This document shows positions 3,972 through 35,404 of a stretch of 37,910 nucleotides of DNA, piece by piece (the stretch's first letter is position 1; every line of letters begins with the position of its first letter). Location of the stretch: positions 1-37,910 of IMG/VR virus record IMGVR_UViG_3300045391_001131, one strand, 5' to 3'. The position numbers and the translations under genes are program-made. This stretch comes from a virus. The notes below the pieces were generated by a model. It was not told the origin of the DNA and searched no databases. It was given only the letters and a program-made list of their open reading frames with translations.

Positions 3972-4574
3972 ATGAAGCGAGGCCTGTGTGTGACGATGTT
4001 GTTATTCGTCGTGGGTGTGGCGCATGCCGAAAATGACGCAATAGTACCGACGGATGCAGGGAAGTTTTTCTACATCTATCACGACAAAGGGGACCGCCAA
4101 AATCATTACATCCCGTCGGGATGGATGGGTGACTACGGTGACCTAAAGCTAAACGAAGCCTACATGCAAGACCCGGCTGACGGGCGGACGGCGATCGAAT
4201 GGACCTATAACGCGCAAGCCAAGCAGGGCGCAAATTGGGCCGGCGCTTACTGGCAAGCTCCAGCCAACAATTGGGGCGACAAGCCTGGCGGCTACAACCT
4301 TCGCGGCTATAAGCGGTTGACGTTTTGGGCGAAGGCTGACCGGATCGCGAAGATCGCCGAGTTCAAGGTCGGCGGCATCACTGGCCAATATAGCGACACG
4401 GCAGATGTTGGCCTGAGCAATGTCGAACTCGGGACCAAGTGGCAGAAGTACACGATCGATCTGAAGGACGCCGACCTTCAGCACATCGTCGGCGGCTTCT
4501 GCTGGTCTGCCAGCCGCGACGACAACATGGACGGCTTCAAGCTGTATCTCGACGAGATTCGGTTTGAGAAATGA
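3972..4574 (+). CDS. Secreted beta-sandwich protein, carbohydrate-binding-module-like (CBM11/CIA30-like by eye)
   Basis: 200 aa. SD AAGGAG. Sec-type signal MKRGLCVTMLLFVVGVAHA/EN. Aromatic/Gly-rich body (GWMGDYG, ANWAGAYWQAPANNWG, LTFWAKA, YLDEIRFEK) typical of CBM-like jelly rolls. Confidence 0.6.
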   Translation: MKRGLCVTMLLFVVGVAHAENDAIVPTDAGKFFYIYHDKGDRQNHYIPSGWMGDYGDLKLNEAYMQDPADGRTAIEWTYNAQAKQGANWAGAYWQAPANNWGDKPGGYNLRGYKRLTFWAKADRIAKIAEFKVGGITGQYSDTADVGLSNVELGTKWQKYTIDLKDADLQHIVGGFCWSASRDDNMDGFKLYLDEIRFEK

Positions 4575-12035: not shown

Positions 12036-12380
12036 ATGGCGAAATTCGAGAAAGGTTGGGCCGGTGGGCCAGGAAGGCCGGTCGGATCAAAAAACAAAAG
12101 CTACACGAGCCTCAACGTTTGGTTCGAGTTGATACACAGCACGCTTGAAGAGCTGCCGCCCGAAAAGAAGCTCGAATACGGCTTCAAGGCGGCGGAACTT
12201 TTATTGGCCAAAGTACAAACGCTGCCCGGCACGCCCGGCGATTCGAGGTCCAATGCCGACAATGCGTTGGCCGAACTGAAAGCAGCAGAGGAATATGGAA
12301 TCAAACGCGACGATGGAAGCCCCCCATCTCAGTCCGGAAGCGACGGCGCTGATGTGGCGGCTGGGCCGGCTCAAGGCTAA
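12036..12380 (+). CDS. terS: Terminase small subunit (putative)
   Basis: 114 aa directly upstream of, and overlapping, terL. The N-terminal WAGGPGRPVGSKNK motif is common in small terminases (DUF5681-like). No SD. Confidence 0.55.
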   Translation: MAKFEKGWAGGPGRPVGSKNKSYTSLNVWFELIHSTLEELPPEKKLEYGFKAAELLLAKVQTLPGTPGDSRSNADNALAELKAAEEYGIKRDDGSPPSQSGSDGADVAAGPAQG

Positions 12381-13773
12381 GCTTCAGCCCAAGCAAAAAC
12401 TGGTATATGAGACGCTTCAGAAAGCGTCTCCCGAGGATATTTTCTGCATCGTATGCTCGCGTGGATTTGGCAAGACCTATACTGGCTGTGCGTTTGCTAT
12501 CGAAACGGCACGCCAGCAGACCGAACCCTGTTCGATCCTCATCATTTCATCCACCCTGAAAAAGCTGCGGATGATTGTGCGGCCGAACTTCCAGCAAATC
12601 CTCGCCGATTGCCCGCCGGAGTTTCGGCCCAAAGAAAACCGCCAGGACAGCTACTGGGAATTTCCGGGCGGGATTCGCATCCATCTGATCGCCGGCGAAA
12701 AAGGGCATATCGAGAATGTCCGCGGTATCCACAAGGTTGTCCTGGTTTTGATCGACGAAGCTGCGTTTTTCGGTGACGAGGAAGACTCTTACCCGCTCGA
12801 TCACATCATTCTAAATATCCTCATGCCGATGTTCATCCGGACCAAGTCGCAGGCCCGGATTGTTGCCATGACGACCCCGCCAGAGACCCCGAACCATCCC
12901 ATCAAAGCGATCTTCCAGCAGTCGGCGCTTTCTGGCTCGGTTGCAGTGTTCGATATTCATCAGTCGGACATCCCAACAGCGCGCGTCGAGCAGATGCGCT
13001 CCCGCATGCTGTCGATGCCGGGGGGGGAGCTTGCATGGGAACGGGAAATGCTCTGCAGGTGGGTCGTCGATACTAACCGGCTGATCATTCCTGAGTGGAA
13101 AAAAGATTACGAGGTGGTCACGAGGCGCGACGAGCTCTTCCCGTACTACGACAAATATTTCTCGCTCGACATCGGATCAGTCGACAAAACGGTAGGACTT
13201 CTTTTCTGGTACGACTTCCGCCGCGGAAAAATCGTCTTCGAGGATGAGATCGTATTCGAAGGGCGCCAGTGGACAACCGATAACCTGGCGGCCGAACTCA
13301 AGGCCAAAGAACTCGGCCAGTGGGGGCCGAACTACCATACCTACCGCCGTGTCGCCGACTCCGACAACCAGATTTTGCTCGCCGACCTCACCCATCTACA
13401 CAAAATGCCGATCCTGCCGACCACGAAGAACTCACTCAACGCCATGGTAAACCAGGCGCGCATGGAAGTGAAGTCCGGAAACGTCGAGGTAAATCCCCGC
13501 TGCAAGCTCCTGATCCAGACGTTGCATGACGGCATCTGGAATAAATCAAAAGACGAATTTGCTCGCACCACGGCGCTCGGTCACATGGATGCGATCGCCG
13601 CTTTTATCTACGGCATCCGGAATGTGGACAAGCTTCATAACCCGGTCCCTGTGACCTACGGCTTCCAGCCGGAAAACCAGATTTACCCGACGCAACCGAA
13701 GGCGCAGACTACGCAGGAACTTGAGCGGGCGCTTGTGGCCTCGAATCCTTTCTTGAGCAAGGAGCGCGAATGA
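12295..13773 (+). CDS. terL: Terminase large subunit
   Basis: 492 aa. Deviant Walker A SRGFGKT, Walker B VLVLIDEAAF. RNaseH-like nuclease Asp motifs SLDIGSVDKT and HMDAIAAFIY. The start is uncertain (in-frame ATGs at 12313 and 12352 would shorten the overlap with terS). Confidence 0.9.
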   Translation: MESNATMEAPHLSPEATALMWRLGRLKAKLQPKQKLVYETLQKASPEDIFCIVCSRGFGKTYTGCAFAIETARQQTEPCSILIISSTLKKLRMIVRPNFQQILADCPPEFRPKENRQDSYWEFPGGIRIHLIAGEKGHIENVRGIHKVVLVLIDEAAFFGDEEDSYPLDHIILNILMPMFIRTKSQARIVAMTTPPETPNHPIKAIFQQSALSGSVAVFDIHQSDIPTARVEQMRSRMLSMPGGELAWEREMLCRWVVDTNRLIIPEWKKDYEVVTRRDELFPYYDKYFSLDIGSVDKTVGLLFWYDFRRGKIVFEDEIVFEGRQWTTDNLAAELKAKELGQWGPNYHTYRRVADSDNQILLADLTHLHKMPILPTTKNSLNAMVNQARMEVKSGNVEVNPRCKLLIQTLHDGIWNKSKDEFARTTALGHMDAIAAFIYGIRNVDKLHNPVPVTYGFQPENQIYPTQPKAQTTQELERALVASNPFLSKERE

Positions 13774-13967: not shown

Positions 13968-14212
13968 TCCCGGTAACGGTCGGACAGGGAAAGTTTCGGA
14001 TGCTGACGCCTACCCGTTCGATCATGGGCAACTACATCCTGGTAGGCGCGCTCGTTTCTGGCGCCGGCGTCTACACAAAGCGCGTCAAGCCGAATGCGAC
14101 GCGCGACGATCTGCGCCGGGCCTATGGGCTTTTGAGAGAGCAAATACACAAAGAGCACCCTGGGATCAAAGAGGAATTCACGATGCTGCGACCGAAGACG
14201 GCCTATAACTGA
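13964..14212 (+). CDS. Hypothetical protein (82 aa)
   Basis: ATGA coupling. Its stop overlaps the portal ATG by 1 nt. Confidence 0.55.
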   Translation: MIPVTVGQGKFRMLTPTRSIMGNYILVGALVSGAGVYTKRVKPNATRDDLRRAYGLLREQIHKEHPGIKEEFTMLRPKTAYN

Positions 14213-16287
14213 TGGCTGGCGCTCCCGCAGTCCCATCGACGGAGCAGAAGCAACACTCAAAGCTCACCGATTATTTCGCCCTCAAAACTGGTCGCGAGTT
14301 TGTCGAGGCCGCTTTCAAGAAAATGGACGACTATCGCTCATTCCTCGAGCGGTCGGGGCGACTTTCCACCTGGAAGCGGGTCTATAAGAACTACTACCTC
14401 GGGGGCCTCGAGAATGCGCGCCTCCGCCAAGGTGGCGACAAGAACCAATTCGTGATGGCGCAGGTGAACCACTTCGCGAACATCCTGGGCCACATGCTCA
14501 ACAACGTCACCATGTCGCGGCCGAACCTCAAGGCTCGCGCGCAGAATGCCGACTTCAAATCGCTCGCCCAGACAAAAGTCGGCGATCAGGTCCTTGAATA
14601 TTTCCTCGGCGAAAAAGACATGGAGGACCGCACGAAGGATACGGCCGAGCTTTCGCTGCTCTTCGGCGATGCAGAGCTCATGGAACTTTGGGACGCGCTC
14701 GCTGGCGAAGACGCAGCGGCCGATGTGGACCCCGAAACAGGGGAGCCGACGGGTGCGGTGCAGAAGCAGGGCGACGTCATCTTTGATTCTTTCGCGCCAA
14801 TGGACGTGATCAAAGATCACACCATGGGCTCGCCTATCTCGTGCAACTGGAAGATTGTGCGGAAGATGACGAACCGCTGGGATCTGGCCGCAAAGTACCC
14901 TCAATACGAGACGGAGATTCTCCAGACCTCGAGCTCGCCGTCCAATATGCGCCGTCAGCGAATCGGCCACGCAACTTTTGAACCCGACGAAGATCAGATT
15001 TGGCTCTACACGTTCATCCACCTCAAAACGCCAGCTCTTCCGGATGGCCGCCTCGTTCAGTTCATAGACAACTCAGACGTTATCCTGATCGATTCGCCGC
15101 TTCCGCACAAAAAGATTTTGCACCGCATCGCGCCGCGGGAGCAGCATGGGACGGTTTTCGGTTACACCCTCGCCTACGACCTTCTGCCGATCCAAGAAAA
15201 CCTGAACATGCTCTACTCGATCATCGCCTCCAACCAAGCGATGTTCGGCGTTCAATCGCTCCTTGTGGCGAAGGGGTCCGGGATCGAATACTCCGCGCTT
15301 CAGGGCGGACTAAAGATCGTCGAGTACGACGCCAAGCCCGGCGTGGACACGAAACCTTCCGTTCTGCAGCTCACCTCAACCCCGGCCGAAATTTTCAAAC
15401 ACATCGACCATCTGATCATGCAGATGGAAACGATCTCTGGCGTGAACTCTGTCGTGCGAGGCCAGCCGGAGGCGTCACTCGAATCGGGAGCGGCCCTGGC
15501 ACTTGTTGCCTCGCAGTCTTTGCAGTTCATGTCGAGCTTCCAGCAGGCGTACACACGGCTACTTGAATCATCTGGTACTGGCTTGCTGGACATTTTGAAG
15601 AACTACGCGAAGGCCCCCCGCCTCATCTCGATCGTCGGAAAGAACAATGTGCAGTACCTGCCGGAATTCGTCGGCGACGACATCTCGCTCATCGACCGCG
15701 TGACGGCTGAGGTAAACAATCCGCTCGCGCGCACCACATCAGGCAAACTCCAGATCGCGCAGGACCTCATCACGAAGGGCAAAATCACCCCGGACCAATA
15801 CCTGCAGATCCTCGAGACGGGCTCCCTTGAGCAAGCCATTGAAGGCCAGTCTTCCCAGCTCATGTTGATCAAAGAAGAAAACGAGCGCCTGATGAAAGGC
15901 GAGGAAGTCCCGGCGCTCCGCACTGACCTGCACATGACGCACATCTCCGAACACGCTGCGGTCCTTGCCAACATCGACGCGCGCTTCAAGCCGGAGATCG
16001 TGAATGCGGTCGACGCACACATCAGGCAGCACGAGCAGCTCCTGATGCAGCTCACGCCGATCTTGGCCGGAGCGACGAATCAGCCGGTGCTCAATACGGG
16101 CGCACCCCCTACTGGTGGTGGACCTGGTGCTGGTGCAGGCGCACCACCACCTGCGGGCGGAGGAGCACTCAACGTTATCAACCCTGAGAATCCAGTGCAG
16201 GGAGCAGCCAACGCTGTCAAGCAGCCCGCTATGCCGAAAAACCCGCTAGGCGGCCAGCCGTTTAACGCGACTACAGGAGGGATGTAA
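14212..16287 (+). CDS. Portal protein (putative)
   Basis: 691 aa, downstream of the terL module. Size and position are typical for a portal. The C-terminal ~70 aa are G/P/A-rich and low-complexity. Confidence 0.75.
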   Translation: MAGAPAVPSTEQKQHSKLTDYFALKTGREFVEAAFKKMDDYRSFLERSGRLSTWKRVYKNYYLGGLENARLRQGGDKNQFVMAQVNHFANILGHMLNNVTMSRPNLKARAQNADFKSLAQTKVGDQVLEYFLGEKDMEDRTKDTAELSLLFGDAELMELWDALAGEDAAADVDPETGEPTGAVQKQGDVIFDSFAPMDVIKDHTMGSPISCNWKIVRKMTNRWDLAAKYPQYETEILQTSSSPSNMRRQRIGHATFEPDEDQIWLYTFIHLKTPALPDGRLVQFIDNSDVILIDSPLPHKKILHRIAPREQHGTVFGYTLAYDLLPIQENLNMLYSIIASNQAMFGVQSLLVAKGSGIEYSALQGGLKIVEYDAKPGVDTKPSVLQLTSTPAEIFKHIDHLIMQMETISGVNSVVRGQPEASLESGAALALVASQSLQFMSSFQQAYTRLLESSGTGLLDILKNYAKAPRLISIVGKNNVQYLPEFVGDDISLIDRVTAEVNNPLARTTSGKLQIAQDLITKGKITPDQYLQILETGSLEQAIEGQSSQLMLIKEENERLMKGEEVPALRTDLHMTHISEHAAVLANIDARFKPEIVNAVDAHIRQHEQLLMQLTPILAGATNQPVLNTGAPPTGGGPGAGAGAPPPAGGGALNVINPENPVQGAANAVKQPAMPKNPLGGQPFNATTGGM

Positions 16288-17697
16288 ATGAAACGTATGC
16301 TCGCCGTCCTCGCCACACTCGCCGGGGTTGCAGTGGCCGCATGGGCGGCTCGCACGGTCTATACGGGACCCCTCGTCCATGAATCGGGATTGGCCTACGA
16401 CAAAAATTACACTCTCAACACGACGAACCACGGGATTTCTTCTCTCTCCGCGACGGCCTCATATTCCAGCGCTACCGTGGCTGCGCAAACCTTTACCGAT
16501 GGGCAGGTCTCAACTGGCTCTATTACCGTCACTTCGAATTCGAACCTGGCGGGCAAGCAGGGCACCAATACTCTAACGGTGTTATCGACCAGCGGGCTCA
16601 CCGGCTCATTTATTCTTCTGGATGGAGTCCGGCTTACCAATAGTGTGCATTGGTATACGGGAGTATCGACCAATACAACGGCGACTTCCATAAAAAATGC
16701 GATCAACACGTATGCGCCCCAATTTACTGCAACCGCTTTGGGGAATGTCGTCACCATTACCTGTGGCAGTTCCGGAACGTGGTGTAACACCATCTCGCTT
16801 TCCGTAGTTGGCACGTCGTCGATTACAGCCGGCGCCGCAACATTTTCGGGAGGAATCGACAATTCATTTTTGGCCATCAACGGAGTTTCGCTTGTCCAGG
16901 GGTCCGGATCTGGCCAGTGGGCGGTAGGCGCATCCAGCGCTGCAACGGCAAACAATATCGCAACGCTCATCAATGCGAACACGAGCCTAAACTCGATTGT
17001 TATTGCAACTGCCCCGGTTGTCTGTGGCCTCACCAATCCCTGCGGAGTCGTGAAGGTTACGTCAAGCGGCGTCGGCACGACGACAAATTACAGCCTTTAC
17101 TCTTCAAGTAATTCGCAGCTCACCCTCTCAAGTCCAGTGACCGTTGACTCAAGCGGTCGCGGAACCTCCGCACTCTACGGAGGAGTCAATGCCTCGTGGA
17201 CGCTAAATGGGAAAGACATAACTATCACAAACAACCCCTTTTACGCGAAGAACGTTGCAAATGGGCAGGCTTCGATGGTTGCCCTTCCGGTGCTCTATTC
17301 GACTGGATCGGTTGCTATTGGCGGGCTGACGAACCAGACGACCTACTATGTTATCCCCGTCGACGTTAATACCATTCGCTTGGCTTCTAATTCCGCAAAC
17401 GCTCAAGCCGGGACTGCAATCACCCTGACATCGAGCGGGACTCCAACGGCTGCGCATACCTACACGCTCACGCCTCTGCCGATCGCGGGCACGGTAAGTA
17501 TGAAATGGCAAGTTTCGAACGATGGCACAACTTGGACTGATCTTTCGACCCCGAGCGTTACGTTTGGCTTGCCATATACTGCAAGCTCAACCTCATGGGA
17601 TTTTAACGGTTCGATCTACCAATACTACCGACTGAGTGTGACGGCACCTACGCAGGGAGGGCTGGCCCTCGTCGTGACGATAAACGGCTCGAATTAG
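16288..17697 (+). CDS. Signal-peptide-bearing S/T/N/G-rich beta-protein with internal repeats (fibre/adhesin-like)
   Basis: 469 aa. ATG directly after the portal TAA, SD GGAGGG. N-terminus MKRMLAVLATLAGVAVAAWA/AR. Two copies of a ~70-aa unit also occur in ORF 22385..22924. The C-terminal GLTNQTTYYVIPVDVNTIRLASNSANAQAGTAITLTSSG is a fibre-like motif. Confidence 0.6.
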   Translation: MKRMLAVLATLAGVAVAAWAARTVYTGPLVHESGLAYDKNYTLNTTNHGISSLSATASYSSATVAAQTFTDGQVSTGSITVTSNSNLAGKQGTNTLTVLSTSGLTGSFILLDGVRLTNSVHWYTGVSTNTTATSIKNAINTYAPQFTATALGNVVTITCGSSGTWCNTISLSVVGTSSITAGAATFSGGIDNSFLAINGVSLVQGSGSGQWAVGASSAATANNIATLINANTSLNSIVIATAPVVCGLTNPCGVVKVTSSGVGTTTNYSLYSSSNSQLTLSSPVTVDSSGRGTSALYGGVNASWTLNGKDITITNNPFYAKNVANGQASMVALPVLYSTGSVAIGGLTNQTTYYVIPVDVNTIRLASNSANAQAGTAITLTSSGTPTAAHTYTLTPLPIAGTVSMKWQVSNDGTTWTDLSTPSVTFGLPYTASSTSWDFNGSIYQYYRLSVTAPTQGGLALVVTINGSN

Positions 17698-17705
17698 GAG
17701 GGGCT

Positions 17706-18191
17706 ATGCAAAAGAAATGGCTGTTTATCTTTCTAGTCGTCTTGGCTAAAGGAGCGTCGGCTTCGTCAATCACGCAGCCCGTATCGATCGCCGCTATTCA
17801 GACTTCAGCAGCGGCGACGCCAATATCGGTCTCGGTATCGACGACGGTCGTCAATTCTGACGGATCGTTCGCGGTATGCGTGTCGACTTGGGCCAATGTA
17901 GCGGCGTCGCAAACCGATCAGATACTTGTTCAGGCGGTCGCCGGAAAATCGATCCGCATCATGGGCGCGAAAGTGATCTGCGGGTCGACGGCGACGGCGA
18001 TTACGTTTAACAGCAAAGGCTCGGGGGCGGGCACGGCAATCGGGCCGACTGATTCGAATGCTGCGAACGGCGGTTATATTCTTCCGCCATTCAACCTTGG
18101 ATGGTCACAAACCAATAGCGGCGAAGCGCTATCGGTCACTACCGGGGCCGGCTCGACCACATCGGTTCGGCTCGCCTACTGTCTCTTCTAG
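17706..18191 (+). CDS. Signal-peptide-bearing small beta-protein (161 aa)
   Basis: SD GGAGGGG. N-terminus MQKKWLFIFLVVLAKGASA/SS. Confidence 0.6.
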   Translation: MQKKWLFIFLVVLAKGASASSITQPVSIAAIQTSAAATPISVSVSTTVVNSDGSFAVCVSTWANVAASQTDQILVQAVAGKSIRIMGAKVICGSTATAITFNSKGSGAGTAIGPTDSNAANGGYILPPFNLGWSQTNSGEALSVTTGAGSTTSVRLAYCLF

Positions 18192-18200
18192 GAGGACACC

Positions 18201-18476
18201 ATGAAATACCTTCTTGCAGCGCTGTTGCTCGCGACGCCAGCCTTCGCCGAGACGCTCTATAAAGTCGACAGCCAAGGAAACGGGAATTACCTGCTGCATT
18301 ACAAGGTGACCACGACCACCATAGACGGCAATACGGTGGAAACGGAATCGAAAACGATCCAAGCGACTCGTGCGGGGTTGCAGTCGGATATTGACTATTG
18401 GAACGCCCAGATTTCAAATGCGCAGGCCCATATCGCCGCGGATCAAACGGCCATCACGCAAATTGACGCGCAATGA
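18201..18476 (+). CDS. Signal-peptide-bearing small protein (91 aa)
   Basis: SD GGAGGA. N-terminus MKYLLAALLLATPAFA/ET. C-terminal helical Q/A-rich tail. Confidence 0.6.
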   Translation: MKYLLAALLLATPAFAETLYKVDSQGNGNYLLHYKVTTTTIDGNTVETESKTIQATRAGLQSDIDYWNAQISNAQAHIAADQTAITQIDAQ

Positions 18477-19750
18477 GCCACGTCGTCCGCATAGCGATTC
18501 TAGTCGGTCTCGCCTTCTCAAGCGCCTTGGCGATGGAGACGCCGCTATTCATGTATACCTCGTCGGCTTTCACGTCGAGTCTGTCATACAACCCGGTCAT
18601 GAACCCCTTTTCCGGATGGAGCGGTAGCGAGACCACGCGTCAAAATCTCGTGCCGGGCTCGGGCGTGATTCACGGTCTGCAGTTCATGACCATCAACGCG
18701 CCTGGCGCTGGACAGACCTACACGATAACCTTGCGAGTCAACAGCAACGACACGCCGATCACCTGCACGATCGCCGATTCAAACATGTCTTGCACCGACA
18801 CGGTCCACATTGCGACCGTGACGGCTGGCGATCTGATCAGCTATTCGGCCGTGGCCTCGGCTTCGGCCGGAAGCAGCGGGAGTAATTTTGCCTCCATACT
18901 CTTAAACCCCGGCAGCAAGGGCATTTCCTACCTCGTAGGCACTCAAAATGCGGCCGGTGTTCCGAATTCATCCACGAGCTATTTGCCGGTCCAGGCGATT
19001 AGTCAAGCGGCGATCGCCGACTATAACGCAGCGGCGGGCCTGGTCGCGGCACCAGGTCGGATCTCGAATTTTTACATCAACATGTCGGGCACTCCGGGCA
19101 GCGGGAAAAGTTATACGTTCACGTACATGAAAAATAACGTGGCGCAAAGCCTGACTTGCACGATCAGCGACAGCAATACGACGTGCAATGACACCAACGC
19201 CGCGCATTCATTCACAGTCGTCCCTGGAGATGATCTGGCGCTCCAGGTTGTGCCCTCTGGTACGCCGAGCAGCGGCCGCGTGACGCGCTTCGCATCGGTG
19301 TTTCAACCGAACGTGGACGGCACCAATTTGGTGATCTCCGCGTCCTCGTCGACATTTACGCCCGGCTCAACCCGCTATTTCACGCCGACGGGCTCGACAA
19401 CGGGAAACAATACGGTATGGTCGCTCGTCGAAGCCGGCCGGCAAGCGATCGGCATCGCCGGCGTGATCGGGAACTTTTACGCCAAAACAAGCGGCGCACC
19501 AGGAGCTGGGGAATCCTTCGTCTTTAATTTCCGGCAAAACGGCGTGACGCAAACGATTGGGACGACGATCGCCAATACGAGTACCTCGGGTAGCGACCTG
19601 ACCGATTTCCTGCCGCTCTACAATGGGGACTATTTCGCGTTACAGCTTATCGCATCCGCTGGCGTTCCATCGACGGTCTACGGCCGGTTTGGTTTTACCT
19701 ACAGCATTCCTCCGCCGACGTTGCGATCGATGACGGGCGTCGGCCAATAG
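18473..19750 (+). CDS. Signal-peptide-bearing protein made of three tandem ~120-130-aa beta-domains
   Basis: 425 aa, ATGA-coupled. N-terminus MSHVVRIAILVGLAFSSALA/ME. Three repeats share G.I.nFy....PG.G.sytFt..., and repeats 1-2 carry a conserved Cys pair CTI(A/S)DSN..C.D. Confidence 0.6.
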   Translation: MSHVVRIAILVGLAFSSALAMETPLFMYTSSAFTSSLSYNPVMNPFSGWSGSETTRQNLVPGSGVIHGLQFMTINAPGAGQTYTITLRVNSNDTPITCTIADSNMSCTDTVHIATVTAGDLISYSAVASASAGSSGSNFASILLNPGSKGISYLVGTQNAAGVPNSSTSYLPVQAISQAAIADYNAAAGLVAAPGRISNFYINMSGTPGSGKSYTFTYMKNNVAQSLTCTISDSNTTCNDTNAAHSFTVVPGDDLALQVVPSGTPSSGRVTRFASVFQPNVDGTNLVISASSSTFTPGSTRYFTPTGSTTGNNTVWSLVEAGRQAIGIAGVIGNFYAKTSGAPGAGESFVFNFRQNGVTQTIGTTIANTSTSGSDLTDFLPLYNGDYFALQLIASAGVPSTVYGRFGFTYSIPPPTLRSMTGVGQ

Positions 19751-19842: not shown

Positions 19843-20850
19843 ATGGCTCAACCAGTACCTGTCGAAAATTCAGCATCAAACGCTTTGGAGAAACCAGCGG
19901 CAAATGAGACGAAGCAGCCTAAGAGTGGGGCGAACCTCACCGCTCCTGAAACGAAAGGAGCTGCGGCTGAGACGAAGCCGCCCGTTCCCGAGGCGCCAGC
20001 GAAGCCTGCGAACGCACTCGAAGCCGAACTAGCCGCCCAACTTGGCGAAGACTGGAACAAGCTCCCACAGAAGGCGAAGGACCGCATGATCGCGGCGGAG
20101 ATGAAGTCGCGGGAAGCCGACAAGCGAATGCAGCTTGCCGCCAAGCTCAAAAAAGACTTGGACATGACGAACGCCCAGGTTGGCCAGCTCATCGCTGCTC
20201 TGCGCCAGGACCCCTGGAAGGTGCTCTCAAACCCTGCTCTTGGACATGATGTCCGGAAGCTCGCCGAAGAGTACGTCTGGCAGATGATCCAAGAGCAGCG
20301 CATGACCCCAGAGCAGCGCGAGGCCATGCAGGCCAAGATGGAACTGCAGGAACTCAAGGCACAGCAGGAGAAAGCGAAAAAGGATCAGGAGCAGCGCGAG
20401 ATGGACGCTTTAATCGCGCAGCGGCGACAATACTGGGAAAAGTCGATCTCAGAAGCCATCGACGAGGCGAAGTTGCCAAAAACCTCATACACGGTCCGGA
20501 GGTTCGCCGACTATATCCGTGCTGCGGCACGGTCACGGCAACCGGCCGACATGCCCGCGATCGCCGCACAGATTCGACAGGAACTCGTCGACCTTCAGTC
20601 GCGGTTCCTTTTGCCTCCGAAGCGCGAAGGCGAAACGGACGATATGTACGAAGAGCGTGTGCTCTCTTCGGCGCCGAACGATTTCATCAAGCTGCTCCGT
20701 AAAGCGGACCTGAAGAAGCTCCGCGCAAGCGGCAAGCTGCCGAAACCCGGGCCGAAGTCCGGGACTGGGCCAGTTGCCCCGCAAGGGCAGAAGAAGATGA
20801 GCATGTCCGAGTGGCTGAATACACGCGATCAGCGACTCGGTCGGAAGTAG
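19843..20850 (+). CDS. Scaffolding protein (putative)
   Basis: 335 aa. SD AAGGAG. Highly charged, helical, A/E/K/Q-rich. Lies immediately upstream of the capsid candidate. Confidence 0.6.
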   Translation: MAQPVPVENSASNALEKPAANETKQPKSGANLTAPETKGAAAETKPPVPEAPAKPANALEAELAAQLGEDWNKLPQKAKDRMIAAEMKSREADKRMQLAAKLKKDLDMTNAQVGQLIAALRQDPWKVLSNPALGHDVRKLAEEYVWQMIQEQRMTPEQREAMQAKMELQELKAQQEKAKKDQEQREMDALIAQRRQYWEKSISEAIDEAKLPKTSYTVRRFADYIRAAARSRQPADMPAIAAQIRQELVDLQSRFLLPPKREGETDDMYEERVLSSAPNDFIKLLRKADLKKLRASGKLPKPGPKSGTGPVAPQGQKKMSMSEWLNTRDQRLGRK

Positions 20851-20995: not shown

Positions 20996-22300
20996 ATGGC
21001 AGCCGCAGATACACTAACCACTCTCAATGGGCTGACGAAGGAACGCTACGCCGACGGCGTCGTAAACGTTGTGCCCGATCAGGACAAAGTCCTGAAAATG
21101 ACGAAGTTTTCCCAGAAGGACCGCATCGGCGCGCACTACAACCAGCCCGTCATTCTGTCGAACGAGCAAGGCATCACGTTCGGCAACTCGTCCAGCACCC
21201 TTCCGCTCTCGCTGAACAACAGCGTGGCGATGACCATGCAGAACGCTCAGCTCCAGTCGATGTTCTTCGCCCTTCGCGGACAGATCGGCGTCGATGCGAT
21301 CGTCAGAACGGCTTCCAAAGATCAAGCGATCGAGGACGCCTTGGAACTGCTCGTGACCAACATGGTCGAGTCGGAAACCGCTTACATCGAATCCGAACTG
21401 CTCTATGGTTCAGTCGGCATCGGTTCCACCGGGACCGCCGCCTTCACGAACAACAGCGCGACCTCGGAAACGGTGCCAGTCCAGGACATGGCGGCTGGCC
21501 TCTTCGCTGGCAAGGAGAATGCCACGATCCAGTTCTACAACAGTACCTCGCTGGTGTCGTCCGGATCGGATTCGGTGTTCACCATCTCGGCGATAAGCTA
21601 TAATGCGACAACCCCGAGCTCCTCGACCATTACGGTTACCGGGACTTCGACCGGCATCACGGCGCTAAACGCGCTCTCTGGAACGAACCTCACGATCTAC
21701 TGGAACGGCGCCTATGGAATCGAATTCCCGGGGATCGCGGCGGTTGCTTCCGCCGGAACGTCGCCCATCACAACGCTCTACGGCATCACCTGCGCGAACT
21801 ACAGCCTATGGAACGGGAACGTCTTCTCCTGTAACAGTGCGCCGCTGACCTTCGGTAAGGTTCAAGAAGGCGTTGGTGTTGCCGTCGCAAAGGGCCTCAT
21901 GGGGAAAGCACACCTGCTCGTCAGCCCGCCCACCTGGGCGAACCTGCTGAACGACCAGGCCGGCCTGCGCCGCTATACGGGCGACGGTTCCGCGAAGTTC
22001 TCCAACGGGGCCGAAGAGATCGAATATTCGAGCTCGAACGGCGCTCTGGTTATCGTTCCCCACCCGTACGTAAAGACCAATCAGGCACACCTTGTCCCTG
22101 ACTTGGCCGGTCGCTGGAAGAGAATCGGCTCGGTTGAGCTCGCATTCAATCCCGGCGTCGAAGACCCTGACAAATACTTCGTCATGCTGCAGAACTCCCT
22201 CGGGTATGAGACCCGGCTCGTGAGCGATACCTCGCTCTTCATCGAGACGGCCCCGGCCCGCTGCGTGCAGTTCACCAGCATCACGAACACGACTAACTAA
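20996..22300 (+). CDS. Major capsid protein (putative)
   Basis: 434 aa. Strong SD AAGGAG. Follows the scaffold-like gene after a 145-nt leader. Assignment by position and size, not by motif. Confidence 0.65.
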   Translation: MAAADTLTTLNGLTKERYADGVVNVVPDQDKVLKMTKFSQKDRIGAHYNQPVILSNEQGITFGNSSSTLPLSLNNSVAMTMQNAQLQSMFFALRGQIGVDAIVRTASKDQAIEDALELLVTNMVESETAYIESELLYGSVGIGSTGTAAFTNNSATSETVPVQDMAAGLFAGKENATIQFYNSTSLVSSGSDSVFTISAISYNATTPSSSTITVTGTSTGITALNALSGTNLTIYWNGAYGIEFPGIAAVASAGTSPITTLYGITCANYSLWNGNVFSCNSAPLTFGKVQEGVGVAVAKGLMGKAHLLVSPPTWANLLNDQAGLRRYTGDGSAKFSNGAEEIEYSSSNGALVIVPHPYVKTNQAHLVPDLAGRWKRIGSVELAFNPGVEDPDKYFVMLQNSLGYETRLVSDTSLFIETAPARCVQFTSITNTTN

Positions 22301-22384: not shown

Positions 22385-22924
22385 ATGGCCAACAGCGTTT
22401 TTAACATCCTCATCACCACCCAGGATTCGGCTCAGGCAGTCAAAGATAAATTGATTCTTTCGCGGCAATCTCCCACAACTTTGCTCGAAGCGATTGCTCA
22501 ATATTTCCACAGAATGTCAGGCGGTATTACGGCGGCTAAAGTCCAGGTGTCGACGACGGTCGTCCAGGCGAGCGGAACCATTACCTTTTCGTCTTTTGTG
22601 CAGGACGACACCATCACCGTCAATGGAACTCTCTTGACCGGGAAAGATAGCCCGTCGGGCTCGGCGCAATTTCAGACCGGCGCTGGCACCACCGATACGA
22701 CCATTGCGGCTGCGGCTGCTGCTTGCATCAACGCCAATAGCACATTGAATAAGCAGGTCGTGGCGACATCAGCCTCTAACGTCCTCACTGTGACAGCGCT
22801 TGTTCCTGGGGCCTTCGGAAACCTTGGCACCATCGCCATCTCGGCGCACGGGTCCGTTTCTGGCGGCGGTCTTTTGGCATCAGGAGCACAAGACGCAGTA
22901 ACGACCATTTCGCACGGCATCTAA
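22385..22924 (+). CDS. Virion-associated protein (179 aa) sharing a repeat unit with ORF 16288..17697 (head fibre/decoration candidate)
   Basis: SD AGGAG. ITVNGTLLTG...QFQTGAGTTDTTIAAAAAACINANSTLNKQVVATSASNVLTVTALVPGAFGN parallels both repeats of the 469-aa protein. No signal peptide. Confidence 0.5.
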   Translation: MANSVFNILITTQDSAQAVKDKLILSRQSPTTLLEAIAQYFHRMSGGITAAKVQVSTTVVQASGTITFSSFVQDDTITVNGTLLTGKDSPSGSAQFQTGAGTTDTTIAAAAAACINANSTLNKQVVATSASNVLTVTALVPGAFGNLGTIAISAHGSVSGGGLLASGAQDAVTTISHGI

Positions 22925-22933
22925 GGGGGCCTT

Positions 22934-23443
22934 ATGGCCGAGATTGTCGTCCTAAACGGGATCAACTACACCATCCCTGACCCGGGGGATCAGCCGAACT
23001 GGGGTACGGGCCTCACGCCGTACCTCGTGGCGGTGGCGGCGACGATCGCCTCGAACCCATCGTTTATGCAGTTCGTGAATGTCGCCTCGTCGCCGACGGC
23101 GATGGTCTCTGGCAAAACCTACCTTGTTAACACGGGCTCGATCGCGATCCAGATGAACCTACCGACGCCGGCGCAGAACGCCTGGGTCATCATCAAGGAC
23201 TCAGGCTTCAACGCCTACACGAACAACATCACGGTACACCGTGCGGGTTCTGAAAAGATCGACAACGTGACGGCGGACTTCGTCATCAACAACTGCGGCG
23301 CGGCGTGGGTTTTCATGTCAGACGGGACAGACTGGTTTAGCGTAGGGTCTGCAGGGGACGTCGTTCTGAAGGACATTTCCGACGGGAACCGCTACCGGCT
23401 ATTCATGAATGGTGGTGTACTGTCGACGCAGCAGGTGGCCTGA
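22934..23443 (+). CDS. Tail/fibre-associated structural protein (169 aa), tentative
   Basis: The N-terminal LNGINYTIPDPGDQPNWGTGLTPYLVAVA resembles N-terminal motifs of podoviral fibre/appendage proteins (by eye). Confidence 0.45.
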   Translation: MAEIVVLNGINYTIPDPGDQPNWGTGLTPYLVAVAATIASNPSFMQFVNVASSPTAMVSGKTYLVNTGSIAIQMNLPTPAQNAWVIIKDSGFNAYTNNITVHRAGSEKIDNVTADFVINNCGAAWVFMSDGTDWFSVGSAGDVVLKDISDGNRYRLFMNGGVLSTQQVA

Positions 23444-23444
23444 T

Positions 23445-24461
23445 ATGAAACAGCTATTCCTTGCAGCGCTCGCGATCGCCGGGCTCGCCATGAAGGTGCA
23501 AGCCGCGCCCCTGTATGGATATGTCCAGATTACTACCACCACCGCCTTGACGCCCACCCTGCAAAACGGCGCCATCAATATCGCAAGCGGAACTATTCGC
23601 AACGTTAACGTTACCTTTGGCGTATCGGCGGCTACACTAACGGCATCCGGCCTCATTACCGGCGGCACGTTTTCAGGATCTGGGGCCAGCCTGACAAATA
23701 TCCCGGCCGCGAACATCACCGGGGCCATCCCGACGGCTTCGCTTAGCAACGTTCAGAACACGACGAACACCTGGACTGCGCCTCAAACATTCTCGCGCAC
23801 GATAACCATTTCGTCCAATGTTGTCGATGGTAGCTCCAGCCAGGGAAGTGCTGGGCAGTCGCTTCAATCAAACGCCGGGTCCGCCCCCACGTGGGTCAAC
23901 GTCCCGTCAGCAATTCTGTCTACGACCTCGACGTGGACAGCTAATCAGACGATCACTAGCGCCACGGTCACAACCCTAAACTCTACGACGATTAACGTGA
24001 CGACAATTACGCCGGCCGGAATCGTCGGGACGACGACGAACAGCAACGCCAATGCTGGCAATTATGGCGAGTATATATCGACGAAAACCGCCTCAGCGAC
24101 GAACTGCCCTTCTACTGGTGTCTTCGGCGATCTCGTGTCCTTTACATTGACCGCGGGCGACTGGGACATTAGCAGCAATTTCGTTTACAACAACAACGGT
24201 GCGACGACGACAGGCGGGAGCTTGACGATGGGAATAAGCACCACCTCTGGAAACTCTTCGAGCGGCCTTGTAAGTGGCGATAACCGTGGTGACTATGCCA
24301 CTGCCCCCATCACCGGCTCAAGCAATTTTGTCTCTGGATCAATTCCCGCCTGGCGGCAAAGCATCAGCGGCTCGACCACTTTTTACTTCAAGATGGCCTG
24401 TTCTTATAGCGTCGCGACGCCAACCATTCAGGGACGCATGAGTGCACGGCGAGTCCGATAG
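23445..24461 (+). CDS. Tail-fibre-like protein with N-terminal signal-peptide-like segment
   Basis: 338 aa from ATG 23445 (AGGTGG upstream). N-terminus MKQLFLAALAIAGLAMKVQA/AP. Fibre motif FSGSGASLTNIPAANITGAIPTASL. T/S/N-rich shaft. C-terminal globular domain (GEYISTKTA...LTAGDWDISSNFVYNNNG). Confidence 0.6.
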   Translation: MKQLFLAALAIAGLAMKVQAAPLYGYVQITTTTALTPTLQNGAINIASGTIRNVNVTFGVSAATLTASGLITGGTFSGSGASLTNIPAANITGAIPTASLSNVQNTTNTWTAPQTFSRTITISSNVVDGSSSQGSAGQSLQSNAGSAPTWVNVPSAILSTTSTWTANQTITSATVTTLNSTTINVTTITPAGIVGTTTNSNANAGNYGEYISTKTASATNCPSTGVFGDLVSFTLTAGDWDISSNFVYNNNGATTTGGSLTMGISTTSGNSSSGLVSGDNRGDYATAPITGSSNFVSGSIPAWRQSISGSTTFYFKMACSYSVATPTIQGRMSARRVR

Positions 24462-24693: not shown

Positions 24694-25668
24694 ATGGTAG
24701 TCGCCCTCGGCGCTCCGGTCACGGTTGACTCTATCGTTTCGACGGTTAAGCAACAGGCTGTCGTGCCGAACACGGCGTCGCTTTTCTCGTCGGCGAACGT
24801 TGCGAACCTTCTCGACGACGCTATGCGGAAGAAAGTCATTCCGCTGGTGAAATCGCTGAAGGAGGAATACTGGGTCACGACGATCGCGACGCAGATTTCG
24901 GCGTCGGTGAACGCCTACGCGATTCCTTACCGTGCCGTCGGACATGCGCTACGCGACGTGGCGCTCATGGACAACAATCAGAACCTGCTGCAGCTCGTGC
25001 GCTACGAGCCGGAGGACATCAAGTTCCCGCTCATCCCGTACAACAGCCCCTATTTCCGGCTCGGCTACTACCTACAAGATTTCAACGTGGTCCTTTTCCC
25101 GCCGCAAGTCTCGAATTATACGGCCTACCAGATTTTGATGAAGTACGAGCGCCGCCCATCCAACCTTACACTAACCTCAAACTGCGGGCAGATCACGAGT
25201 TTCAATCAGGGGGCGTCGGCCTTAACACTTTCTTTCGTGCCCACCTCGTGGTCGACCTCGACGACGCTCGACGTCATCAACAACCTCCCGCCGTTTAACT
25301 CGATTGCAGACGACGTGGTGATCACGAACATCAATGGGCTGACGCTGACGGTCACGATCCCGTCCGGCTTTTCCTCGACGTTCTGGTCCAACGTGGCCGC
25401 AAATTACTGGTGCGCGCCTTCCATGACGACGCCGATCCCACAGATTCCCTATGAGGCTTTCCCGTATCTGACCGCACTCGGGAAAAAACAGGTGCTCGAA
25501 GGGCTCGGCGACTCGAACATGCTGAAGTCGGTTGACGACGATATTGCCGACTCGAAGGTGTTACTCAATTCGATTTTGACGCCGCGCGTGGAAGGAACGC
25601 CGAAGACGCTCTCGGGCTTTGGCGGGATCATCAACTACGGGCAGAACAGGATCGGGAACCTCGGCTAA
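24694..25668 (+). CDS. Head-tail adaptor / tail tubular protein A-like (by position)
   Basis: 324 aa. SD AAGGAGG. It precedes the 836-aa protein, as gp11 precedes gp12 in T7-like layouts. No motif-level support. Confidence 0.4.
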   Translation: MVVALGAPVTVDSIVSTVKQQAVVPNTASLFSSANVANLLDDAMRKKVIPLVKSLKEEYWVTTIATQISASVNAYAIPYRAVGHALRDVALMDNNQNLLQLVRYEPEDIKFPLIPYNSPYFRLGYYLQDFNVVLFPPQVSNYTAYQILMKYERRPSNLTLTSNCGQITSFNQGASALTLSFVPTSWSTSTTLDVINNLPPFNSIADDVVITNINGLTLTVTIPSGFSSTFWSNVAANYWCAPSMTTPIPQIPYEAFPYLTALGKKQVLEGLGDSNMLKSVDDDIADSKVLLNSILTPRVEGTPKTLSGFGGIINYGQNRIGNLG

Positions 25669-34289: not shown

Positions 34290-34781
34290 GTGGAAATCCC
34301 ATGGTGGTTGAAGAGGACTGGTCTCTTGGCCGGGTCACTCGCTGCGGGATTCATTACAGGAAGGTGGAGCGTTTCGATCGACTTCGATCTTCCAGCCTTC
34401 TGGACAAACAAGAAAAAGGGGATGCGCATGCCGCCTGAGCTCGTCTATTTCAAGCCCGAAGAAGTCGTCGGGCTCGACCAGGAGCTATGTGCGATGCTGG
34501 ACCTCGCCCGTGGCCATGCTGGGGTTCCTTTCACGATCACATGCGGGCTTAGGACCCAGGCGCAAAATGACGCATTAGCGGGATCATCCGTCAAAGACTC
34601 TGCGCATTTAACTGGCCACGCAGTGGATCTAGCCTGCTCCGATTCAGCGAGTCGCTTTGCGATGATCAAGGCTTTGCTTGGGGTGGGTTTCACGCGAATC
34701 GGCGTCTATTCGGCCCACGTCCACGTCGACAATTCTAAGACGCTTCCGCAAAACGTCATCTGGTACGCACAAGGCGCATGA
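34290..34781 (+). CDS. Peptidase M15-type endolysin, possibly with N-terminal SAR/TM extension
   Basis: Zn-peptidase motifs SAHLTGHAVD (H-x6-D) and HVHVD (H-x-H). The canonical domain starts near ATG 34422 (AAAGGGG upstream). The in-frame GTG at 34290 would add WWLKRTGLLAGSLAAGFITGRW, a Gly/Ala-rich weakly hydrophobic helix. Confidence 0.75.
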   Translation: MEIPWWLKRTGLLAGSLAAGFITGRWSVSIDFDLPAFWTNKKKGMRMPPELVYFKPEEVVGLDQELCAMLDLARGHAGVPFTITCGLRTQAQNDALAGSSVKDSAHLTGHAVDLACSDSASRFAMIKALLGVGFTRIGVYSAHVHVDNSKTLPQNVIWYAQGA

Positions 34782-35065
34782 ATATCATCCAAGCCATCAA
34801 GGCGCTTTTCGCAGCAAAAAGGCTAGTTGAATCGGAAATCAAGGAGGCTAAGATTATGAATTCAGTCGGAAAACCTGCATGGAAAACGACCGAGTTTTAC
34901 TTCAATGTCGCAACCCAAATAGGGATCGTATGGAGTACGGTCCAAGGGTTCCTCCCGCCGAAATATGCCGCGATCATTTCGACGGCTGGAGTGGCAATCT
35001 ATACCGTTGCTCGTACGATCGCTAAGGCTGTGACGGATGTTCAAAACATCAAGGCGAATCAATAG
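34778..35065 (+). CDS. Holin-like protein (two TM helices)
   Basis: 95 aa, ATGA-coupled to the endolysin. TM1 FYFNVATQIGIVWSTVQGFL, TM2 YAAIISTAGVAIYTVARTIA. Confidence 0.55.
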   Translation: MNIIQAIKALFAAKRLVESEIKEAKIMNSVGKPAWKTTEFYFNVATQIGIVWSTVQGFLPPKYAAIISTAGVAIYTVARTIAKAVTDVQNIKANQ

Positions 35066-35083
35066 AGATCGGCTCGGCCGCCA

Positions 35084-35401
35084 ATGGATAAAATCGCAAT
35101 GCGAGAATGGGTTTCCTCGCTCGAGGAAATCGTCGACAATAAATTACGCAAATGGCGAAAAAGTCACACTATCGAAAATGGCGAAGTGGTGCAACTTCGC
35201 TGGCAGTTTGAGCAATCGCACATCCAGATAGATGTGTTTTGGCCGGACAAAAAAGAGGGGATCATCCTCCAGTACCTCAGCCCACGGACCAATCATTCCT
35301 ATTATTGGCATGGGTTAGATGATCGGACATTCAATAAAGTGATGGATCGGGTGGGAAATCTCGCTCAGGTAACAATGCACCCGCCAATCGAGCCGGACTA
35401 G
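35084..35401 (+). CDS. Hypothetical protein (105 aa), lower-GC
   Basis: ORF in series with the operon. No SD or motifs recognised. Confidence 0.5.
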   Translation: MDKIAMREWVSSLEEIVDNKLRKWRKSHTIENGEVVQLRWQFEQSHIQIDVFWPDKKEGIILQYLSPRTNHSYYWHGLDDRTFNKVMDRVGNLAQVTMHPPIEPD

Positions 35402-35404
35402 AAT

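Follow-up and report, generated by a model that had tools for sequence, protein, structure and literature searches.

The analysed window, the whole 37,910-nucleotide stretch of an IMG/VR virus record, derives from a temperate, short-tailed phage with an integrase gene at 36788-37801, and carries, within its head-assembly operon, four genes whose products look destined for export. These genes, designated A to D, lie on the plus strand, as do the portal gene in front of them (14212-16287; Pfam P22_portal, 1.5e-7; PHROG 156, 1e-12) and the scaffold-like gene behind them (19843-20850), which precedes the major capsid gene (20996-22300; PHROG 14242) and shows 67-70% identity to the gene that follows A in related phages. 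Gene A (16288-17697) encodes 469 amino acids, gene B (17706-18191) 161, ORF C (18201-18476) 91 and gene D (18473-19750) 425. In the cultured-phage search the portal was matched only by a Silvanigrella phage, at 27%; a hint to the host comes from one Gallionellaceae MAG contig, which carries a portal of 80% identity.

The four reading frames are chained to one another and to the portal gene. The portal stop codon TAA is immediately followed by the ATG of A (16285-16290), with GGAGGG upstream of this start; the Shine-Dalgarno sequences GGAGG and AGGAGG precede B and C, and C and D overlap by ATGA at 18473, so that the spacing across the cluster consists of gaps of 0-9 nt plus this one overlap. 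A scan for promoter-like sites yielded 3, compared with 4.5 expected from shuffled sequence, and none of them upstream of A-D, which by itself is no proof that a promoter is lacking. No strong terminator after D was found in a scan of the cluster, and the GC content of the cluster (0.53-0.58) is like that of the flanks. A-D belong to the late operon, without room or signal for a promoter or terminator of their own. Both the translational chaining to the portal gene and the late-operon character, which the first-pass annotation had proposed, are thus borne out.

The predicted N-terminal signals comprise 20 residues in A (16288-16347, plus strand; MKRMLAVLATLAGVAVAAWA/AR, site AWA/AR), 19 in B (MQKKWLFIFLVVLAKGASA/SS, site ASA/SS), 16 in C (MKYLLAALLLATPAFA/ET, site AFA/ET) and 20 in D (MSHVVRIAILVGLAFSSALA/ME, site ALA/ME). 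Signals were called by combining family comparison with a heuristic rule: the n-region must be positive, there must be a hydrophobic stretch of 8 or more residues without charge, and positions -3 and -1 must be occupied by small residues. All four N-termini satisfy this rule for Sec type I (SPase I) signals, in agreement with the textbook Sec signals claimed for them before. Within the window the rule is satisfied by 6 of 55 putative genes, A-D among them, and by 10 of 206 when all ORFs of at least 60 aa are counted; its chance rate is about 2-3% per ORF, and four or more consecutive positives, given 6 in 55 genes, occurred in about 0.2% of permutations. A lipobox of the type L-[AST]-[GAS]-C (SPase II) was not found, as Cys is absent from the predicted cleavage sites of A-D and their immediate surroundings, and the Tat motif S/T-R-R-x-F-L-K was likewise missing, with no RR in the n-regions MKR, MQKK, MK and MSHVVR.

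Two further genes of the window carry a predicted signal, in both cases read from the sequence. The first (23445-24461, plus strand) is a fifth late signal-bearing gene and encodes a tail-fibre-like protein of 338 aa with the N-terminus MKQLFLAALAIAGLAMKVQA/AP and a match to PHROG 11393, tail fiber (9.6e-5); in relatives its N-terminus is conserved and its C-terminus variable, and counterparts with signals are present in phages L009, L017 and L019. The second, in the early region (3972-4574, plus strand), encodes a further predicted exported protein of 200 aa with a Sec-like signal (MKRGLCVTMLLFVVGVAHA/END), for which no Pfam match was obtained.

Comparative evidence for the signals comes from the family of A. 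At least 114 of its 120 homologues (31-70% identity) kept the signal, with Ala (44/120) or Val (19/120) at position -3 and Ala (63/120) at position -1 of the alignment, and a median of 25 aa between the start and a conserved Tyr. Identity amounts to 26% within the signal and 39% in the mature part; the signals of the A family are conserved in kind and not in sequence. Because of this conservation, the observance of the -3/-1 rule and a Cys pairing that tracks the signals (see below), the signals are very likely real, and they look functional.

Behind its signal, A consists of an N-terminal beta domain, two decoration domains of the tail-sheath/tail-tube kind, a tail-fibre repeat and a CBM/discoidin-like jelly roll. 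The AlphaFold model (pLDDT 94) is a compact monomer, for which the Foldseek matches were the outer domain of tail sheaths (probability 1.0) and, at the C-terminus, CBM32/CBM4-like folds. The best viral sequence match of A is gp17 of the Rhodobacter phage RcTitan (1.5e-16); with the A-family profile RcTitan gp17 was found at 3.6e-22 and gp13 at 2.4e-14, both signal-less. Residues 302-405 match tail fibre or spike proteins of cultured phages (tblastn, 2e-6). Just 3' of the capsid gene lies a signal-less paralogue of a decoration domain (22385-22924, plus strand, 179 aa), which aligns with residues 182-241 of A (BLASTP, 4.5e-4) and is recognised by the A-family HMM (1.2e-6). The central two domains share fold and detectable sequence homology with the sheath outer domain of the myophages A-1(L), Milano and 7-7-1 and with RcTitan gp17/gp13. 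In contrast to these signal-less, cytoplasm-assembled proteins A bears a signal, begins its mature part with a distinct domain and ends in a CBM-like one, and the positions of its Cys pairs are occupied by Ala and Ser/Gly in RcTitan gp17. Homology to virion proteins assembled in the cytoplasm had been named beforehand as an argument against export; it exists, but only at the level of domains and to proteins that lack the signal of A. It tells the origin of the A domains, and the signal of A still stands. A supposed preferential conservation of the N-terminal domain was rejected, as conservation is even along the protein (34-44%). Further relatives of A turned up on one already included viral contig and on two JGI metagenome fragments, and none in genomes.

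For D, 121 homologues were found. Its model (pLDDT 91, pTM 0.89) is also a compact monomer, with the pTM pointing to a fixed domain arrangement, and suggests three tandem C1q/TNF-like jelly rolls behind the signal, two of them with a Cys pair. The top Foldseek matches were single-chain C1q, Cbln1 and APRIL-BAFF trimers (3.5e-10 to 5e-7, probability 1.0). These engineered proteins contain three such domains per chain, as D does, but the overall superposition on these single-chain trimers is poor (TM only 0.23-0.25, rmsd about 22 Å), so that a C1q-like packing of the three domains around a pseudo-threefold axis is at most a candidate arrangement. The ten-strand jelly-roll fold of the repeats is shared with the C1q globular head, cerebellin, the C-terminal domain of BclA, phage spike knobs and the Pam3 gp18-like Pfam family. 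Pfam matches of the D family, to Pam3_gp18 and BclA_C, are weak and confined to 5 of 72 members (best 8.5e-7), and Pam3 gp18 is a baseplate plug of a single domain (PMC9942802), compared with three in D. According to these models, mature A and D consist of beta-sandwich modules of the kind present on virion surfaces.

The product of B is composed of the signal, a linker of about 35 aa and a conserved domain of about 100 aa, whose fold was unmatched to the PDB. Most of its 245 homologues are signal-less proteins of 105-125 aa, and about 8 of 120 have signal and linker; relatives in Pfam, PHROG and PDB were not found. In both families, B and D, the majority of relatives lack a signal and belong to phage structural modules, and the signal of D is an N-terminal add-on in comparison with the signal-less majority of its family. 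A tblastn search of cultured phages gave no match for B, D or their signal-less relatives P0005 and P0261. ORF C, with a mature part of 75 aa, has the weakest standing of all: a search of 1.8 billion representative proteins brought up only a fragment of C itself, and this ORFan counts as a gene only through its Shine-Dalgarno sequence, its coupling with D and an N-terminus that resembles a signal. In scans against Pfam and PHROG no match of A-D passed the threshold, and a catalytic domain was detected neither in these scans nor by Foldseek on A and D.

Composition and Cys content of the mature proteins agree with the description given in the first-pass annotation. Ser, Thr, Asn and Gly together make up 48% of A, 41% of B and 43% of D, compared with 15-36% in neighbouring structural proteins. 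Cys pairs are present in A (C159/C166 and C246/C252) and in D (C98/C107 and C229/C238), and 105 of 120 mature A proteins have an even number of Cys residues. Among the D homologues, each Cys pair is complete in 79% of the 29 with a signal and in 3.4% of the 58 without one, a correlation that stems largely from one clade; an NJ tree contains about 9 changes of state for the signal and about 8 for the Cys pairs. The signal-bearing D proteins gained Cys pairs. Since disulfides form also in virions assembled in the cytoplasm, for example in the Pam3 baseplate (PMC9942802), Cys pairs alone are no proof of a periplasmic location.

Comparison with related phages separates A from the other three genes. 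A directly follows the portal gene in all six relatives examined (L002, L008, L009, L017, L018 and L019), and none of them has B, C or D. The scaffold-like gene begins 8-12 nt after A in L002, L008, L017, L018 and L019. A is alone in the slot in L002, L008 and L019, L009 contains in addition an unrelated signal protein of 303 aa, and in L017 and L018 signal genes are placed between scaffold and capsid. A is a core gene in this clade, whose phages have a P22-like portal and an adaptor/nozzle tail, and the slot behind A is a hotspot, in which relatives hold nothing or a different signal-bearing gene. The idea that all four genes had been inserted between portal and scaffold holds for B-C-D, but not for A. 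Presence or absence among collinear relatives, a mark of morons, likewise applies to B-C-D and not to A; a promoter or terminator of its own and a deviant base composition were not seen for the cluster. In another phage, L010, a B-like gene adjoins a D-like gene, and B and D are a linked cassette that recurs. The signal proteins of L017 and L018 were rejected as B-like (hhalign probability 0.1), and between those of L009 (303 aa) and L010 (311 aa) no significant alignment was found. Signal-bearing homologues of A were also found right 3' of the capsid gene in L006, a different, non-podovirus tailed phage, and, in the myovirus L007, at a place flanked by fibre and lysis genes, next to two other signal/TM proteins, which indicates that the protein is not tied to one virion type.

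We propose, with about an even chance of being right, that A-D are late, Sec-exported accessory proteins that bind glycans or receptors, are derived from virion modules and probably mask or remodel the envelope. They would be made late together with the head operon and be exported via Sec rather than join the particle in the cytoplasm. Towards the end of the infection they would pass the inner membrane, be freed of the signal by cleavage at the AxA site and be stabilised by disulfides. The lectin-like domains could then bind glycans or receptors of the envelope. Receptors of the producing cell, and those on its debris, would thereby be occupied or remodelled, so that progeny would not be wasted and superinfection would be blocked. 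This masking or exclusion role, reached by analogy, is the least secure step. Sec alone leads to the periplasm of a diderm host and not to the cell surface, which counts against this explanation. Moreover, both A and the gene at 23445-24461 belong to the core of the structural operon, an uncommon position for accessory functions and one that suits a structural role.

Such a role would be played if the proteins were fibres or decorations that are exported to the periplasm, where they fold and acquire disulfides, and that join the particle only at lysis, or if the N-terminal helix were a structural anchor. We consider this unlikely, even though the mature domains are homologous to the sheath outer domain, RcTitan gp17/gp13, tail-fibre repeats and the phi812 spike knob, the protein of 23445-24461 combines a constant N-terminus with a variable C-terminus as receptor-binding proteins do, and signal-less relatives of B and D are located in structural modules. 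The full architecture of A, including the N-terminal domain, is kept in podovirus, non-podovirus and myovirus-type contexts and at varied map positions, which argues against a specific docking partner on the virion; B-C-D are dispensable in six relatives; and AlphaFold predicts compact monomers for A and D instead of intertwined trimeric fibres. To our knowledge an extracytoplasmic assembly step is without precedent in tailed phages. That particle assembly of the clade includes such a step, with A, the 23445-24461 protein and perhaps D being fibre and decoration proteins that are exported by Sec, oxidised in the periplasm and attached at lysis, appears quite improbable; if it were true, the signal-less and signal-bearing branches of B and D would reach the same site of the virion in two ways.

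Exported proteins are also classic cargo of morons, and in a temperate phage A-D might be lysogenic-conversion genes, whose surface or periplasmic products serve the host from the prophage by adhesion or phage exclusion, like lambda lom and bor. The moron-like distribution of B-C-D among close relatives is consistent with this. We nevertheless regard it as distinctly unlikely, because sigma-70-like promoters or terminators flanking the cluster are not above chance, the short gaps and the ATGA overlap bind the genes to translation of the portal, base composition equals that of the flanks, and A sits between portal and scaffold with spacers of 0-12 nt in every relative.

Late expression and export are combined in lysis regulators such as T4 RI, and A-D could be periplasmic accessories that tune the timing of lysis or loosen capsule, EPS or outer membrane from inside. 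CBM-like and K1-lyase_C-like domains, seen in A as well as in cassette neighbours of relatives, and the lysis genes next to the A homologue of L007, point in this direction. With no catalytic domain detected in A-D, the lysis block of the window far away at 34290-35905, and C, which lies outside this block, as the sole spanin-like match (PHROG 739, insignificant at E 0.29), there is little probability in this proposal. Finally, the hydrophobic N-termini might have nothing to do with export, or starts might have been mis-called, the proteins then being ordinary cytoplasmic structural ones. This is very improbable: in D an in-frame Met does coincide with the predicted mature start (METPLF) and aligns with residue 1 of signal-less homologues, but an internal Met is lacking at this place in signal-bearing D homologues such as P0016, no other start is available to A 3' of the hydrophobic segment, K/R, hydrophobic core and AxA persist in nearly all A homologues despite sequence drift, and only a few percent of ORFs match the rule by chance.

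Taken together, large proteins with folds of the virion surface and conserved export signals are encoded inside a head operon, one of them by a core gene and the others in a rapidly exchanged slot, an arrangement that is not accounted for by current tailed-phage biology. As far as we know, tailed phages are taken to assemble their particles wholly in the cytoplasm, and the proteins they export are usually small factors of lysis, exclusion or lysogenic conversion. No prior description of families of the A-D type was found in the literature searched on exported phage structural proteins. Two large metagenomic phage families, B and D, alternate between signal-less and signal-bearing forms. Should A-D mask receptors, they would represent a widespread, undescribed way to protect progeny or exclude rivals with copies of the phage's own surface modules; should they end up on the virion, the textbook assembly pathway would change. 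Under either outcome the families are concrete, testable candidates, and they call for caution in annotation pipelines that term every gene of a structural block a virion protein.

Exported proteins encoded in late operons are, contrary to the earlier assessment as poorly precedented, known from lambda (Lom and Bor), T1 (Cor) and T5 (Llp). T5 Llp, T1/phi80 Cor and P1 Sim are exported phage proteins that act at the envelope and stop further infection or loss of progeny, and the genes of Llp and Cor adjoin tail or receptor-binding genes. Llp and Cor are short lipoproteins, whereas A-D have no lipobox and no relation in sequence or fold to these three proteins, and the function given here for A-D is a proposed one. 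Lambda Lom and Bor are Sec-dependent envelope proteins, whose genes lie among the morphogenesis and lysis genes of a temperate phage and vary between relatives. The likeness to A-D consists in Sec-type proteins encoded in the late region of a temperate phage and varying among relatives. Lom and Bor, however, are small morons, of the outer-membrane or lipoprotein type, that are expressed on their own in lysogens, whereas the system described here comprises large, soluble-looking, multi-domain beta proteins, for which no promoter or terminator was found in the cluster and which are chained to translation of the portal, with A as a core gene.

The whole 37.9-kb contig carries the gene set of a temperate phage with a short tail (podovirus type). 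It comprises a large terminase (12295-13773), a P22-like portal (14212-16287, + strand), a scaffold-like gene (19843-20850, +), the major capsid gene (20996-22300), a weak match to an SU10-type adaptor (24694-25668), a nozzle-sized gene of 836 aa and an integrase on the minus strand (36788-37801). Four + strand ORFs lie between portal and scaffold exactly where the first-pass annotation had placed them: gene A (16288-17697, 469 aa), gene B (17706-18191, 161 aa), ORF C (18201-18476, 91 aa) and gene D (18473-19750, 425 aa). Their proposed translational chaining to the portal gene was confirmed: the TAA of the portal abuts the ATG of A, GGAGG-type SDs are located ahead of A, B and C, and C and D overlap in an ATGA. 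No promoter- or terminator-like sites above shuffle expectation were detected in the flanks of the cluster, and its GC is that of the flanks. The cluster reads as a part of the late operon and not as an independently transcribed unit, as had also been proposed.

In all four N-termini, 1-3 basic residues precede a hydrophobic core without charged residues, and a small-x-small site follows; the predicted cleavage sites are AWA/AR (A), ASA/SS (B), AFA/ET (C) and ALA/ME (D). A rule-based scan for such signals was positive in 6 of the 55 putative genes of the window (10 of 206 when all ORFs of 60 aa or more are counted). A run of four positive genes had a frequency of about 0.2% by permutation and is not due to chance. 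The stronger case for the predicted signals comes from the comparison of homologues. Using a hydrophobicity threshold, a signal was called in at least 114 of the 120 A homologues (31-70% identity, source contigs mostly 30-70 kb), and most of the homologues below the threshold resemble mis-called or truncated starts. The family alignment indicates A or V at the inferred position -3 and A at -1. The identity is 26% in the signal segment versus 39% in the mature part, the signal character being kept despite this drift, and 105 of the 120 mature proteins contain an even number of Cys. The claim of Sec-type signals on all four ORFs is thus upheld by heuristic and comparative calls.

The cluster had also been described as inserted, and the analysis of synteny in six relatives with portals 74-86% identical supports this only in part. 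B, C and D are absent from all six relatives, whereas a homologue of A with a signal is located directly 3' of the portal in every one of them. In L002, L008 and L019, A and the scaffold gene downstream of it are at most about 10 nt apart; in L009, A is followed by an unrelated signal-bearing Cys-rich protein of 303 aa and a 60-aa ORF. By this synteny A belongs to the core genes, the junctions next to it are hotspots for signal-bearing cargo, and B-C-D are shown to be accessory cargo at one of these hotspots. Two of the relatives, L017 (8459-8944, 161 aa) and L018 (8430-9083, 217 aa), contain another signal-bearing gene between scaffold and capsid. The corresponding proteins have 'TGTFWQxTQPVSG' repeats and are kin to a 461-aa signal protein adjoining the D homologue of locus L003; they are unrelated to B.

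In the confident AlphaFold model of A (pLDDT 94), the signal forms an N-terminal helix. Behind it lie one beta domain, a pair of alpha/beta domains, another region of beta structure and, at the C-terminus, a jelly roll. Foldseek revealed no PDB match to the whole chain. The two central domains resemble the outer domain of the myophage tail sheaths A-1(L), Milano and 7-7-1 (probability 1.0) and the C-terminus resembles CBM32/CBM4/discoidin-type modules; a sequence-profile search against the PDB agreed with these assignments. The best viral match is gp17 of Rhodobacter phage RcTitan (1.5e-16), a protein of 737 aa in the tail-tube position, a homologue of which was named tail tube protein (PMC8601537). 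The A-family HMM matches RcTitan gp17 with 3.6e-22 and RcTitan gp13 with 2.4e-14. In contrast to the signal-bearing A, gp17 and gp13 have hydrophilic N-termini, and C159 and C166 of A are replaced by Ala and Ser in gp17. Among cultured phages, residues 302-405 of A have matches in tail fibre, tail spike and wedge proteins. Using the same HMM, a signal-less protein of 179 aa encoded right after the capsid gene (22385-22924, +) was matched with 1.2e-6. This protein contains the decoration domain common to A and RcTitan gp13/gp17. Its probable role is head decoration, in which case the phage would hold a cytoplasmic and a predicted exported copy of one domain.

Signal-bearing homologues of A are also present directly after the capsid gene of a different tailed phage (L006) and between the fibre and lysis genes of a myovirus from an Elusimicrobia MAG (L007), where two more signal or TM proteins adjoin it. 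Conservation is even along mature A, and A behaves as a self-contained unit moving between phage types.

Predicted export extends to other proteins of the same phage. A tail-fibre-like protein of 338 aa (23445-24461, +; PHROG 11393) starts with the Sec-like signal MKQLFLAALAIAGLAMKVQA/AP; the ORF lister gives 23409 as start, and the ATG at 23445 lies after the stop of a 169-aa gene (22934-23443). Its counterparts in L009, L017 and L019 all have signals, with about 100 conserved N-terminal residues and a divergent C-terminus. An early-region protein of 200 aa (3972-4574, +) opens with the clear predicted signal MKRGLCVTMLLFVVGVAHA/END; its mature part is rich in W/Y/G, and the protein has no Pfam match. 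A and the fibre-like gene are core genes homologous to virion proteins, as would be expected if A-D were genuine virion parts which mature in the periplasm and are added at lysis. We regard this explanation, the main rival to the reading proposed below, as unlikely. Disulfides of virions can form without export, as in Pam3 (PMC9942802).

The D family comprises 121 homologues of about 400 aa, each built with three internal repeats, about 115 residues long. The model of D is confident (pLDDT 91, pTM 0.89). With Foldseek its best PDB matches are C1q, cerebellin and APRIL/BAFF in the form of engineered single-chain trimers; at their low global TM of about 0.24, a C1q-like packing is at most tentative. 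Single-domain matches are cerebellin and the phi812 spike knob, and some family members match Pam3_gp18 and BclA_C of Pfam. A signal is present in roughly a third of the family. The signal-less two thirds start with M-E/D-Q-V/P-I/L, and this start aligns with residue 21 of D, immediately behind the predicted site of cleavage. The Cys pairs were compared in 87 full-length members: both Cys of each D pair are present in 79% of the 29 signal-bearing versus 3.4% of the 58 signal-less proteins. In an NJ tree most signal-bearing members form one clade, and four scattered signal-bearing tips outside it also have the Cys pairs; about nine state changes were counted for the signal and about eight for the Cys pairs. 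We consider this correlation suggestive. In L003 a signal-bearing D is located between portal-sized and scaffold/capsid genes next to another signal protein, and in L005 a signal-less D is found at the end of a structural block. A further signal-bearing homologue (P0103; L020, 2520-3797) is located near one end of a bacterial contig of 218 kb, at a distance of 2.5 kb, and is followed by IS elements and fatty-acid genes, possibly at a prophage edge.

The B family consists of 245 homologues with a common domain of about 100 residues, for which no known relative was found. Most of them have 105-125 aa and no signal, including one from an SU10-like phage (L011), where its gene lies between those of capsid and adaptor; a signal and linker like those of B occur in about 8 of the 120 homologues listed from the 245. 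In L010, signal-B is followed by signal-D, then by a further signal protein and a signal-less B-like paralogue, and this adjacency indicates that the B-D linkage in the window is no accident. Four signal-bearing genes form a run in L010 (7062-10680) between capsid-proximal genes and the adaptor, encoding a 311-aa protein with a weak K1-lyase_C match, the B-like and D-like proteins and a protein of 190 aa containing a long repeat rich in Pro and Thr. C is an ORFan by homology search. Its sole database match, a fragment of 56 aa, is the same as residues 36-91 of C (window 18306-18476) and begins at an internal GTG, so the signal-bearing start was not called by other gene callers.

As judged by portal match, the only hint at a host is a 25-kb contig of a Gallionellaceae MAG (L013, JBGPPE010000028.1) with a portal 80% identical, on which no bacterial flank was seen. 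The lysis block (34290-35905, +) starts with an M15 peptidase endolysin (34290-34781, +), whose G/A/S-rich, hydrophobic N-terminus is like that of signal-anchor-release enzymes, followed by a holin-like 95-aa ORF with two hydrophobic segments (two-TM) and a 166-aa ORF that combines a coiled-coil with a TM segment at its C-terminus. The endolysin with the two-TM ORF, the short signals (16-20 aa) and the Gallionellaceae match point to a diderm host, in which Sec alone would take A-D to the periplasm.

Taken together, the comparisons show that the predicted signals are conserved features, that the A-D genes belong to the late operon and that the mature parts derive from virion-surface modules; expression from the prophage as morons, a role as lysis accessories and non-functional signals are each less likely. 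We propose that A-D would be exported by Sec, with cleavage of the signal and formation of disulfides, and may then bind envelope glycans or receptors. As their purpose we favour, by analogy with Llp, Cor and Sim, that they mask or remodel receptors of the producing cell and its debris, which would protect progeny and bring about exclusion; this is the least secure step. Two considerations lead us to it: a signal carried by only some members of the B and D families is readily understood if every member acts outside the cytoplasm, having left it via lysis or via Sec, and the retention of the whole architecture of A in phages of differing morphotype speaks for a partner in the host rather than in the virion. 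The literature searched yielded no account of either the families or the arrangement, and B, D and their relatives were not found in cultured phages. The pattern of signal-bearing virion-like genes is robust and broad. Exported proteins in late operons are of a known kind; new are large, conserved, virion-derived proteins with predicted export that are chained to the portal gene, and families toggling between predicted exported and non-exported forms.
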